Assembly (NCBI GenBank): GCA_963663235.2
Contig: CAXXNO010000006.1
Coordinates: 160,001 to 224,000 of the forward strand
DNA length: 64,000 nucleotides
Direction of reading: 5' to 3'
DNA from: Dehalococcoidia bacterium
Lineage (GTDB): Bacteria; Chloroflexota; Dehalococcoidia; Bin125
Shown: piece by piece, positions 54,134-57,714 of the stretch
Layout of the letters: each line of letters starts with the position of its first letter
How positions within the stretch are numbered: position 1 is the first letter of the stretch
The notes under the pieces: model-generated
The model's input: only the letters and a program-made list of their open reading frames with translations
The model's database searches: none
What the model was told of the DNA's origin: nothing
Made by a program: the position numbers and the translations under genes

Positions 54134-55744
54134 ATGCGGCGGATCGTCGAGGTCGCGGGTGATCTGGGGTTGGGGGAAGACGATCTGGAGCAGTACGGGC
54201 CGTACAAGGCGAAGCTGACCGAGGCAGCGCTGGAGCGGCTGCGGGAAGCGACGCCCGGACGGCTGGTGCTGGTCACAGGGATGACGCCGACCACCGCGGG
54301 CGAAGGGAAGACCACCACCGCGATCGGGCTGACGCAAGGGCTGCGGCTGGGCGGCGCGCGGGCGACGGTGTGCCTGCGAGAGCCATCGGTGGGGCCGGTG
54401 ATGGGGATCAAGGGCGGGGGGACCGGCGGGGGACAGTCGGAAGTGCTGCCGGCGGACGAGATCAACCTGCACTTCACCGGCGACCTGCACGCCGTGACCA
54501 CGGCCAACAACCTCCTCTCCGCGACGCTGGACGCATCGATCTTCCACGGCAACGAACACCGCATCGACGTGCGTCGGGTGACGTGGCGTCGCTGCATGGA
54601 CATGAACGACCGCTCGCTGCGGCACATCGTGGTGGGGCTGGGGGCGCCGGCGGACGGGATTCCGCGGCAGGAGGGCTTCGACATCACCCCAGCGTCAGAG
54701 GTGATGGCGATCCTCTCGGTGGCGCAAGACCTAGAGGACCTGCACCGGCGGCTGCGAGAGGTGATCGTCGGGTACACGCGAGAGTGGGAGCCAGTGCGGT
54801 GCGGGCAGATCGGCGTCGAGGCGGCGATGACCGTGCTGCTGAAGCACGCGATGCGGCCCAACCTAGTCCAAACGAGCGAAGGCGGCCCGGCTCTGGTGCA
54901 CGGCGGCCCGTTCGCCAACATCGCGCTGGGGTGCAACAGCATCAGGGCGACGAAGGTCGCGCTGGCGACGTCGGAGGTGGTGGTGACGGAGGCGGGGTTC
55001 GGCTCCGACCTGGGGGCGGAGAAGTTCTTCAACGTGGTCTCGCGCTTCGGGCAGTTGCAGCCGGAGGCGGCGGTGATCGTCGCGACGGCGCGGGCGCTGA
55101 AGCGGCACGGGGGGCGGCCGGCGAAGGAGCTGGAGGTCGAGGACCTGGGCACGCTCGAGGCGGGGCTGCCCAACCTGGACGCGCACATCGACAACGTGCA
55201 GGGGCACGGGGTTACGCCCGTGGTGGCGGTCAACCGCTTCCCCAGCGACAGCGACGCGGAGATCGCAGCCGTGCTGCGGTACTGTGCGGGTCGCAAGGTG
55301 CTGGCGGCGGAATCGAGGCCGTTCGAGGGCGGAGAGGGATGTTCGGGGCTAGCCGAAGCGGTCGAAACGGCGCTGGCGAACGGCGGCGCCCGGCTACGCC
55401 ACCTCTACGAGCCCGAGCAGCCGATCAAGGCGAAGATCGAGCGGGTGGCGCGCGAGGTCTACGGCGCGAGCGGCGTGGTGTACCAAAGCACGGCGGAGAC
55501 GACGCTGGGGCGGGTGGAGAAGCTGGGCATGGGGTCGATGCCGATCTGCATGGCCAAGACGCAGTACTCGCTATCGGACGACCCGGCGCTGATCGGGCGG
55601 CCGGAGGGGCACGAGCTGCACGTGCGCGAGGTACGGCCATCGGCCGGGGCGGGGTTCGTGGTGATCATCGCCGGCGACATCATGACGATGCCGGGGTTGC
55701 CGCGGGAGCCGGCGGCGACGCGGTTCAGGGTCGACGGCGGGTAG
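54134..55744 (+). CDS. fhs: Formate--tetrahydrofolate ligase
   Basis: TPTTAGEGKTTT, INLHFTGD, HGGPFANIA, TEAGFGSDLGAEKF, IMTMPGLP. Confidence 0.96.
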   Translation: MRRIVEVAGDLGLGEDDLEQYGPYKAKLTEAALERLREATPGRLVLVTGMTPTTAGEGKTTTAIGLTQGLRLGGARATVCLREPSVGPVMGIKGGGTGGGQSEVLPADEINLHFTGDLHAVTTANNLLSATLDASIFHGNEHRIDVRRVTWRRCMDMNDRSLRHIVVGLGAPADGIPRQEGFDITPASEVMAILSVAQDLEDLHRRLREVIVGYTREWEPVRCGQIGVEAAMTVLLKHAMRPNLVQTSEGGPALVHGGPFANIALGCNSIRATKVALATSEVVVTEAGFGSDLGAEKFFNVVSRFGQLQPEAAVIVATARALKRHGGRPAKELEVEDLGTLEAGLPNLDAHIDNVQGHGVTPVVAVNRFPSDSDAEIAAVLRYCAGRKVLAAESRPFEGGEGCSGLAEAVETALANGGARLRHLYEPEQPIKAKIERVAREVYGASGVVYQSTAETTLGRVEKLGMGSMPICMAKTQYSLSDDPALIGRPEGHELHVREVRPSAGAGFVVIIAGDIMTMPGLPREPAATRFRVDGG

Positions 55745-55755
55745 GAGATCGAGCC

Positions 55756-55899
55756 GCCGTTCGTGGTTCGACAGGCTCACCACGAACGGCTGAGGGCTCA
55801 CCCCGAACGGCTGAGGGCTCACCCCGAACGGCTGAGGGCTCACCACGAACGGCTGAGGGCCGACCACGGACGGCTGAGGGTTGGCCACGAACGGCGGAC
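55756..55899. repeat. REP-like palindrome followed by a 21-bp tandem array x6
   Basis: Core 55757-55789 identical to 12468-12500; unit GGCTCACC(A/C)CGAACGGCTGAG at 55774, 55795, 55816, 55837, 55858, 55879, decaying rightwards. Confidence 0.93.
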
Positions 55900-55902
55900 C
55901 TC

Positions 55903-56085
55903 TCAGCCGGGCGGCGGCGGGATCTCGATGCTGTAGCGGGCGGCGGCTTCCGCGAGCTTCGCCGTGTCGGGCGGTCCGGCGTCGCCGGTCTCAGAAGCGA
56001 GGAGCTTCACCTCCATGCGCGAGCCCATCATCCAGACGGTCTGGCCCTCGCCGCTCTTGCGAGCGACCAGGTGATCGACGGTCAT
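55903..56085 (-). pseudogene. Probable internally deleted cupin (quercetinase-like) remnant, 60 aa
   Basis: GEGQTVWMMGSRMEVKLLASETG joined directly to PPDTAKLAEAAARYSIEIPPP; no His-containing cupin core. Confidence 0.5.
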
Positions 56086-56106
56086 GCGATCCCCCGCCTT
56101 TCGTCT

Positions 56107-56949
56107 CTAGGCCTTGGCTTCCGTCTCGATCGGGTGATCGACGGCGTCGCCGTACTCGTGCCAGGAAGCGTCGTAGACGCGGACGTCGTCGTAGCCGAGG
56201 AGCCGGAGGACAAACAGTCCGTGCGCCGCACGGATGCCGCCCTGTCAATAGGTGCTGACGCGCTTGTCCGGGGTGATACCGAGGCCGGTGAGTTGCTTGC
56301 GAATCTCGGCGGGCGGCTTAAGCGTGCGGATCGGGTGGTTGAGGTTGTCCATCCATTCGAGATGGACGGCGGTGGGGATGTGACCGCCGCGCTTGGCGCC
56401 GCGGGCGTTGGCGCCCGTCCACTCGCCGTCGGAGCGGACGTCCCAGAGGATCTCGCCCTGGTTGCCGATGCCTGCGGCGACGTCGTCGATGGTGCAGGAC
56501 CAGTGGTTGTTCTGCGCAGTGGGGGTATAGGTGGTGGGCTTGGGGCGGATGTTTTCGTTGGAGAGAGGGCGCCCGTCTGCGTACCACTGGTCGAGGCCGC
56601 CATCGAGGAGCTTGCAGCCGGCGTGGCCGTAGCGGTCCAGCGTCCACCAGAAGCGGGCGGCGAAGACGCCGCCGGATCCGTCGTAGGCGACGATGGTGTC
56701 ATCGTTGGAGATGCCCATCTTGCCCAGGAGCTCGGCGAACTTGTCGCCCTCGATGCCGAAGATGTCGGTGTCGTTGCCGTCGCCCTTCCAGTAACGGGAG
56801 CGGGCGGCGATGGCTTTGGGGATGTGGAGCCGCTGGTAGGCGGGGAGGAGGTCACAATCGACGACGACGAGGTTGGGGTCGTCGAGGTGGCCGGCGAGCC
56901 AGTCGGTGTCGACCAGGAGTTCGGGGTGGGCCCAGCCGTTGGCGGTCAT
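56107..56949 (-). CDS. Two-domain rhodanese/sulfurtransferase (SseA/TST family) with predicted selenocysteine at the active site
   Basis: LVDTDWL, HIPKA, GHIPTA; in-frame TGA at 56245-56247 in STY-U-QGGIRAA; the frame continues [19 protein letters not shown] to TAG at 56107-56109; 280 aa, U at codon 235; AGGAG RBS. Confidence 0.92.
56209..56247 (-). promoter_or_regulatory. Bacterial SECIS-like hairpin
   Basis: UGA-CAGGGCGGCA-UCCGUGC-GGC-GCACGGA-CUGUUUGUC: perfect 7-bp upper stem starting at nt 11 after the UGA, loop starting with G, and a G-U-rich lower stem. Confidence 0.75.
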
Positions 56950-57168
56950 CGTTGCGCTCCTCTCGGCGGAGTGGGACGTGCGCTGATCTGACGGGTGGCG
57001 CTCCTGCGAACACGCCAACCTGCCCTCCCCTTATAGCCGCAACCAGGCCGGCACGTCATCGTTCCGGGTTCGGCCCCGGCGAGGGAACGCCGCTCGAATC
57101 GGCATCGCTCCGGCCCAGCGCCCGGGCAGGACGCCAGCGAAAGCGGCCGAAGGACCGCAGAGGCATCG

Positions 57169-57714
57169 CTAGGGCTCGGGGATCCAGGCCAAGGCGTCCT
57201 CGGAGTGGCCGTTGGAGGGCGGGCAGAAGTGGGGGTCGCCCTCCAACGGCGTATCACAGAGCGGGCACATGGGGCGGCCGGCGGCCACCGTGGCGCCGGT
57301 CTGGACGGCGAAGAGCCGGCCCTGGTCGCGCGAGAAGGAAGCGCGAAGGGTGGGCTGCTCCGGGTCGGGGGCCTCGGCGTCGGTGGCGTAGATGGCCAAC
57401 CGGCGGGCCTTCTCCTCGTAGCCCAGAGCCAAGCGGGCGACGTGGAAATCGAAGGTGGGGTTGAGGGGGAAAACGCCGAGGGGCGGCGCCAGGGGTTTTC
57501 GAGGGGGGTCGTCATCGTGGCGGCGCTGGGCCAGCACCCGCTCAACGGCGGCAGCCAAAGCCTGCACCTGCTCCTTTTCGAGCCAGAGTGAGGCGCTGCC
57601 AGACTCGGTCACGATGCGGATGCGGAAGGTCCGCTGCCCCGGGGCACCGAGGGCCTCCGTCTCCAGGGAGCGGGTGGGGCCGAGGTCATGCTGAGCGTCG
57701 GCCATAGGGGGCAA
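57169..57714 (-). CDS. DUF3090 family protein
   Basis: ALGAPGQRTFRI, LWLEKEQVQAL, AGRPMCPLC...HFCPPSNGH. Confidence 0.88.
   Translation of the reverse strand: MPPMADAQHDLGPTRSLETEALGAPGQRTFRIRIVTESGSASLWLEKEQVQALAAAVERVLAQRRHDDDPPRKPLAPPLGVFPLNPTFDFHVARLALGYEEKARRLAIYATDAEAPDPEQPTLRASFSRDQGRLFAVQTGATVAAGRPMCPLCDTPLEGDPHFCPPSNGHSEDALAWIPEP

Follow-up and report, generated by a model that had tools for sequence, protein, structure and literature searches.

Selenocysteine (Sec)-containing rhodaneses have been catalogued since 2005. Table 1 of the Sargasso Sea selenoproteome of that year lists three sequences of a Sec "rhodanese-related sulfurtransferase" assigned to COG2897, and the SECIS of this COG2897-type Sec rhodanese is given in the legend to its Fig. 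3 (PMC1088965). The GOS analysis of 2008 holds eight Sec sequences in its cd01449 row and one in its COG2897 row (PMC2398784), and a 2026 review describes a Sec rhodanese form 4 with PF00581 and a UxxG motif (PMC13188914). Dehalococcoidia MAGs with 46–49 selenoproteins appear in a database paper of the same year (PMC13326102). Going by these tables, rows and legend, the two-domain Sec rhodanese family is not new (PMC1088965, PMC2398784, PMC13188914), and an earlier, sequence-only reading of the DNA studied here was right that Sec rhodanese-type sulfurtransferases are known, the two-domain type among them. The supplementary tables of the catalogue papers may already list Dehalococcoidia genes of this kind.

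Here we examined such a gene on the minus strand of the window, the whole 64,000-nt stretch of a Dehalococcoidia contig that was analysed. Comparison with homologous sequences indicates that this is very probably an intact two-domain rhodanese gene in which the catalytic Cys is replaced by Sec at an in-frame UGA (Table 1). The frame does run past the TGA to a TAG, as had been claimed, and yields a 280-residue product when read through. A Pfam search of the read-through protein matched PF00581 (Rhodanese, E 9.5e-33) in two separate stretches, the best covering residues 15–124, so two tandem rhodanese-fold domains are present. Residues 7–276 align with the solved thiosulfate sulfurtransferases 3hwi and 3aax (E about 5e-45), and in this alignment U235 lies opposite the Cys of the YCRIGERSSH active-site loop. 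This confirms that the TGA sits at the rhodanese catalytic Cys. The catalytic residue that opens the active-site loop of the C-terminal domain would be Sec here, and it is Cys in the homologues P0006, P0007 and L047–L049. In NCBIfam there were three matches, all under cut-off and none to a selenoprotein-specific model. The best NCBIfam model, the 3-mercaptopyruvate sulfurtransferase equivalog NF008557, scored 104.9 against a cut-off of 250 bits, and the rhodanese was therefore not filed as a 3-MST.

Table 1 Features of the Sec rhodanese gene (positions in the window) and related Sec-motif genes elsewhere in the genome.
Feature	Position	Strand	Remarks
Two-domain rhodanese CDS, predicted to contain Sec	56107..56949	minus	280 residues including U235
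Rhodanese start ATG	56949-56947	minus	same start site in orthologues
Rhodanese end TAG	56109-56107	minus	same frame open from TGA onward
Shine-Dalgarno-like GAGAGGAG	56957..56964	minus	7 nt 5' of ATG; read from sequence
N-terminal rhodanese domain	56578..56907	minus	PF00581, 58.9 bits (G000:C6:216578-216907)
C-terminal catalytic rhodanese domain	56149..56490	minus	PF00581, 52.6 bits, one TGA inside (G000:C6:216149-216490)
UGA, predicted Sec residue 235	56245..56247	minus	catalytic Cys position, active-site loop U-Q-G-G-I-R-A
SECIS upper stem-loop (predicted)	56218..56234	minus	5' arm UCCGUGC 56234-56228, loop GGC 56227-56225, 3' arm GCACGGA 56224-56218
Invariant 17-nt core AUCCGUGCGGCGCACGG	56235-56219	minus	identity across Sec-form loci
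Whole minimum-free-energy hairpin including G-U-rich lower stem	56207..56243	minus	lower stem varies among relatives
Six further Sec-motif genes including SelD	G000:C5:45167-45415, C9:76256-76576, C12:202947-203114, C4:786821-787048, C5:50172-50387, C4:103776-104699		

Standard annotation truncates this protein, as the sequence-only reading had expected. Among the best 48 database matches, 44 are 223–246 aa long at 79–84% coverage, i.e. fragments of ~234 aa without the active site, and the named NCBI records inspected, at 237–240 aa, are similarly short. The ...TY end was confirmed in P0002, P0036 and P0143. The last of these (431 aa) consists of a DUF3090 frame run into the rhodanese and ends before the TGA. 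P0014 (288 aa) is a version of this very protein that keeps the true frame for ~143 residues and then continues in the frame of a spurious ORF (56082–56855); this is apparently the same organism's gene, frameshifted in assembly or in gene calling.

Read in one genome alone, a stop codon that interrupts the catalytic domain would be expected of a pseudogene, an ordinary Cys rhodanese inactivated by a nonsense mutation, and the 234-aa product in public databases fits that picture as well. The distribution of the codon makes this reading exceedingly improbable. An orthologue at E<=1e-70 was found in 63/65 genomes of the same Dehalococcoidia order (a single family in the genome collection used for this count), and the in-frame TGA is present in 63/63; the two genomes without an orthologue match are 88% and 95% complete. 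Across 41 related genomes, the orthologue with an in-frame TGA occurs in 24/24 other family members and in two genomes of other families of the class. TGA stands at exactly the catalytic codon in all 27 loci of a first set, in 45/45 Dehalococcoidia/Chloroflexota MAG loci of a second collection and in 20/20 further order-level loci. These three sets share genomes, and the 72 loci of the first two amount to 42 distinct 48-nt sequences. The more distant class members L045, L046, L093 and L103 also have TGA at this codon. The relatives are Dehalococcoidia MAGs, in keeping with the earlier guess that the genome belongs to the Chloroflexota.

The protein after the UGA is likewise not that of a decaying gene. 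Mean pairwise amino acid identity among the 27 Sec forms is 72% downstream of the UGA and 62% upstream, and from codon +11 on the variation by codon position (0.145/0.157/0.304) follows a coding pattern; the compared coding sequences are distinct from one another in 27/27 cases. The TGA is also not an assembly error, since contigs of runs from three studies cover 56225–56671 or 56225–56773 with no differences. The sequencing data were to be checked for TGC or TGT at this codon, and the contigs (rather than raw reads) of all three studies show TGA.

Alternation of TGA with a Cys codon among relatives, which had been suggested as a check, was seen at exactly the catalytic codon. It is TGC in L047–L049 and in 16/16 distant homologues, 15 of them from Planctomycetota-lineage MAGs (Phycisphaerae, Tepidisphaerales) and one from a Bdellovibrionales MAG. 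P0006 and P0007, proteins that are 60–62% identical, read YCQGGIRAAQ and YCQGGIRAAE. A maximum-likelihood (ML) tree of 27 Sec and 9 Cys forms requires five Sec/Cys changes, at least two of them forced by strongly supported branches, and places P0006 and P0007 among the Sec forms with moderate support. The Cys forms appear nested among Sec forms in this tree (L020–L049 with P0006 and P0007). This suggests that Sec and Cys were exchanged repeatedly in the rhodanese family, with long branches leaving the details unsure.

Directly after the UGA lies the hairpin that the sequence-only reading had put forward as a SECIS. Its upper stem-loop, 7 bp (UCCGUGC/GCACGGA) around a GGC loop, occupies nt 14–30, the first base being the 11th after the UGA, and the lower stem contains three G-U pairs. 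The upper stem, its position, the G-first loop and the G-U-rich lower stem are thus all as described; conservation is confined to the 6–7 bp of the upper stem, and in other genera the lower stem forms different pairs or none. The fold energy is no better than chance (−23 kcal/mol, z −0.68, with 53/200 shuffles as stable) in a genome of 68% G+C. Since the energy is close to that of the shuffles, stability was not used as support, and the significance of the hairpin lies in its conservation. The 17-nt core is identical in 91/92 Sec-form loci (71/72 and 20/20), and the sole exception, L024, has the middle loop base changed and nothing else. Covariation, another proposed check, was not observed: the upper stem never varies, so there are no compensatory changes, and RNAalifold on the 42 distinct sequences returned an invariant 6-bp stem only. 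The structure is supported by invariance, not covariation.

This invariance is seen in the choice of codons. In 107 alignment columns, at least 24/27 Sec forms agree on an amino acid that has synonymous codons, and a single codon is used in only six of them. Five of the six are the consecutive codons +4 to +8, ATC CGT GCG GCG CAC. CGT is rare in this genome, at 8.8% of Arg codons, yet it is invariant in the hairpin, where its U is base-paired to the A of CAC, the His codon. The Cys form L047 encodes the same amino acids with the codons ATT CGG GCC GCG CAC, and its stem is broken. P0006 and P0007 lack the His whose CAC codon makes the 3' arm, which suggests that, in Sec forms, this codon is under constraint from the RNA. 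A scan of species-representative genomes for the DNA of P0006 and P0007 returned Sec forms and distant homologues only, so the codon-level control consists of L047 alone together with the amino acid sequences of P0006 and P0007. Hairpin conservation is therefore borne out as synonymous-site invariance that occurs in Sec forms only. An Rfam search of 55900–57100 at a permissive E-value gave three chance-level matches, none of them to a SECIS family. A 17-nt upper stem-loop suffices as a bacterial SECIS in E. coli (PMC11431864), and a small apical loop containing G is described for bacterial SECIS elements (PMC1088965). The stem-loop directly 3' of the UGA agrees with both of these published criteria, as judged from its predicted fold.

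A hairpin so strongly conserved as RNA might also be a terminator, attenuator or sRNA, placed behind a UGA that is a genuine conserved stop and a functional 234-residue product, and some termination at the UGA is inevitable in any Sec gene. We regard this as very unlikely: the 45 codons after the UGA keep the frame, the amino acid conservation and the rhodanese C-terminal motif, and third-position variation there is twice that of positions 1 and 2. Furthermore, the UGA is aligned with the catalytic Cys, a product ending at Y234 would be without the whole active-site loop, and selA co-occurs with the TGA form. The conserved TGA, its pairing with Cys and the constraint on the downstream protein effectively exclude both a pseudogene and a true stop.

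The genome (2.75 Mb in 14 contigs, 92% complete) contains the Sec-decoding machinery for which a search had been recommended. We found a tRNA-Sec with anticodon TCA (70.9 bits, over cut-off), selA (552 bits), selB (359 bits) and selD (358 bits), the last with its own in-frame TGA in the motif AVCGG-U-GSK. One in-frame TGA each is also present in two AhpC/TSA (Prx-like, UxxC) genes reading FWUPYC and FGUVFC, in two AhpD-like CxxU genes reading HGCAFU and HGCALU, and in one SelW-like CxxU gene reading CATU. These AhpC, AhpD-like and SelW-like Sec motifs are the same as motifs given in selenoprotein catalogues (PMC13188914, PMC9312934), and the predicted selenoproteome would have at least seven members including the rhodanese. 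The two AhpD-like genes have CCGUCUC-GGC-GAGACGG after the UGA, a near-identical GGC-loop hairpin. One AhpC gene has a GGU loop and the other an AGUU loop. The hairpin downstream in SelD has the loop CUGAA and the fold of the SelW-like gene is weak; neither has the GGC motif, so a single SelB consensus is not established.

A UGA that is read through need not encode Sec. UGA reassignment exists in some bacteria, and a general reassignment, or near-cognate or suppressor decoding as Trp, Cys or Gly, would also keep the frame open. However, TGA is otherwise an ordinary stop in this genome, where it ends 546/1247 long ORFs, and it is the natural stop of several of the orthologues. The codon pairs with Cys, which is a hallmark of Sec sites, the other in-frame TGAs lie in catalogued Sec motifs (UxxC, CxxU and the SelD GGUGSK), and the Sec machinery is complete. 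Decoding as anything but Sec is thus highly improbable. Among the 27 genomes holding the TGA form, selA was found in 26; the exception, G040, has the TGA form in a genome that is 71% complete. G039, which is 97% complete and has no selA, carries a Cys form with the same loop motif. In G008, a genome with 8% contamination, there are two selA matches with identical scores (C1:1680550-1681896 and C7:5496-6842), probably a duplicated contig rather than two genes. The conservation of the UGA, the invariance of the hairpin and the presence of the Sec machinery support the earlier proposal of a 280-aa Sec sulfurtransferase.

The surroundings of the gene vary. A DUF3090 gene (57169–57714, minus strand, E 9e-30) lies upstream of the rhodanese on the same strand, and the order DUF3090, rhodanese and convergent formate-tetrahydrofolate ligase is common to three genera; the DUF3090 gene and the rhodanese may be functionally linked. 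Among 50 loci, DUF3090 is a neighbour in 8 and the ligase in 10, and the neighbours found in the window are common to 1/44 loci in one set and 8/50 in another. In other genera the rhodanese is preceded by an S41 peptidase gene and faced by convergent thioredoxin-like genes. The neighbourhood is not conserved across genera in the 44- and 50-locus sets, and an operon-based functional inference was rejected because of this variation. A 21-nt tandem repeat (55774–55895, 5.8 copies, 91% matches) lies between the ligase gene, which ends at 55744, and a short ORF at 55903. This stretch looks like an insertion, since in relatives with the same arrangement of genes the ligase gene ends right after the rhodanese. 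The short ORF (55903–56085, minus strand, 60 aa) lies directly 3' of the rhodanese. Pfam gave no match for it, and counterparts were absent from sets of 44 and 49 related loci. Its two ends seem reminiscent of the N- and C-terminus of a small cupin protein, so it may be a deletion remnant.

Sequencing depth around the active site was unusual. Over 56210–56273 (~60 nt) the summed depth of contigs climbs from one- or two-digit values to thousands in all four metagenome and metatranscriptome runs, hundreds of times the depth over the rest of the gene, and many contigs diverge on both sides. We read this as an active-site/SECIS segment of ~50 nt that is common to many community members and breaks assemblies at this point, a reading in line with the nucleotide invariance of the stretch. 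The "joints" and loose ends that flank this ~50-nt core at 90% likeness are read as genes of other organisms and not as rearrangements. In RNA run X20, depth was present in only 9/30 bins and the pieces over the UGA region show 3–5 differences per ~50 nt. These pieces therefore derive from relatives and are uninformative on transcription of the rhodanese.

Based on homology, the rhodanese is most likely a sulfurtransferase whose active-site residue serves as the carrier of sulfane sulfur. With the ribosome positioned on the UGA, SelB and its Sec-tRNA(Sec) would bind the GGC-loop hairpin, leading to insertion of Sec; with selenium or SelB limiting, termination would instead give an inactive 234-residue product. 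In the full-length enzyme, the selenolate would attack the sulfane sulfur of a donor (thiosulfate, a persulfide or 3-mercaptopyruvate), and the Se-S intermediate would then hand the sulfur to an acceptor, like the Cys persulfide of ordinary rhodaneses. We infer the substrates and the physiological role from family membership only. The loop U-Q-G-G-I-R-A is presumably closer to the thiosulfate-type than to the mercaptopyruvate-type loop. Literature searches that were not aimed at biochemical studies turned up no biochemistry of any Sec rhodanese, and Se-S sulfane-sulfur chemistry is not known to have been characterised for any enzyme of the rhodanese family.

As an example of a selenoprotein still cut short by gene callers, the rhodanese is clean and well supported. 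Because the ~234-aa records are without the active site, inventories of the abundant uncultured Chloroflexota would miss what is predicted to be an active sulfurtransferase, and the selenium dependence of these bacteria is under-counted. Since the UGA form occurs in nearly every genome of the order, it is well suited as a marker of Sec decoding in this lineage. With close Cys forms available for comparison, the gene also lends itself naturally to the question of why a sulfur carrier should prefer Sec to Cys. No new category is opened, the family having been catalogued since 2005. A broader proposal, which we advance tentatively and think somewhat less probable than its opposite, is that Sec-based sulfur transfer is indispensable throughout the order and served by a SECIS of the lineage. 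If so, Sec sulfur transfer would be an indispensable trait of this Dehalococcoidia order and not an optional variant. The frozen CCGU..C-GGC-G..ACGG hairpin, held in common with the AhpD-like genes, could then define a lineage-specific SelB consensus, and this consensus could be used to find further selenoproteins in the clade.

The SECIS of E. coli fdhF provides one point of comparison. Its spacing from the UGA is 11 nt, and in both elements the hairpin starts 10–11 nt after the UGA and has a G-first apical loop. The Dehalococcoidia element is a putative SelB ligand of different sequence, and its predicted stem has no bulged base. The minimal fdhF SECIS is a 17-nt hairpin (PMC11431864), as is the one described here (7 bp plus a 3-nt loop). 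At the protein level, the closest structures are Cys thiosulfate sulfurtransferases (3hwi, 3aax/3aay, 3hzu, 1uar, 1e0c and bovine rhodanese 1rhd), with the same two-domain layout and the same place for the active-site loop. The predicted protein differs from them in having Sec for Cys and the loop U-Q-G-G-I-R-A, where theirs is C-R-I-G-E-R-S. With the catalogued Sec rhodaneses it shares PF00581, the two-domain COG2897-type architecture, Sec at the catalytic Cys position, the UxxG motif (here U-Q-G-G) and a predicted SECIS directly after the UGA. This likeness is one of domain, architecture and motif as the catalogues describe them. To these descriptions the present locus and its relatives add retention across the order, with 63/65 Dehalococcoidia genomes holding the gene, a 17-nt core that is invariant at the nucleotide level, and what appears to be repeated exchange of Sec and Cys within the clade.
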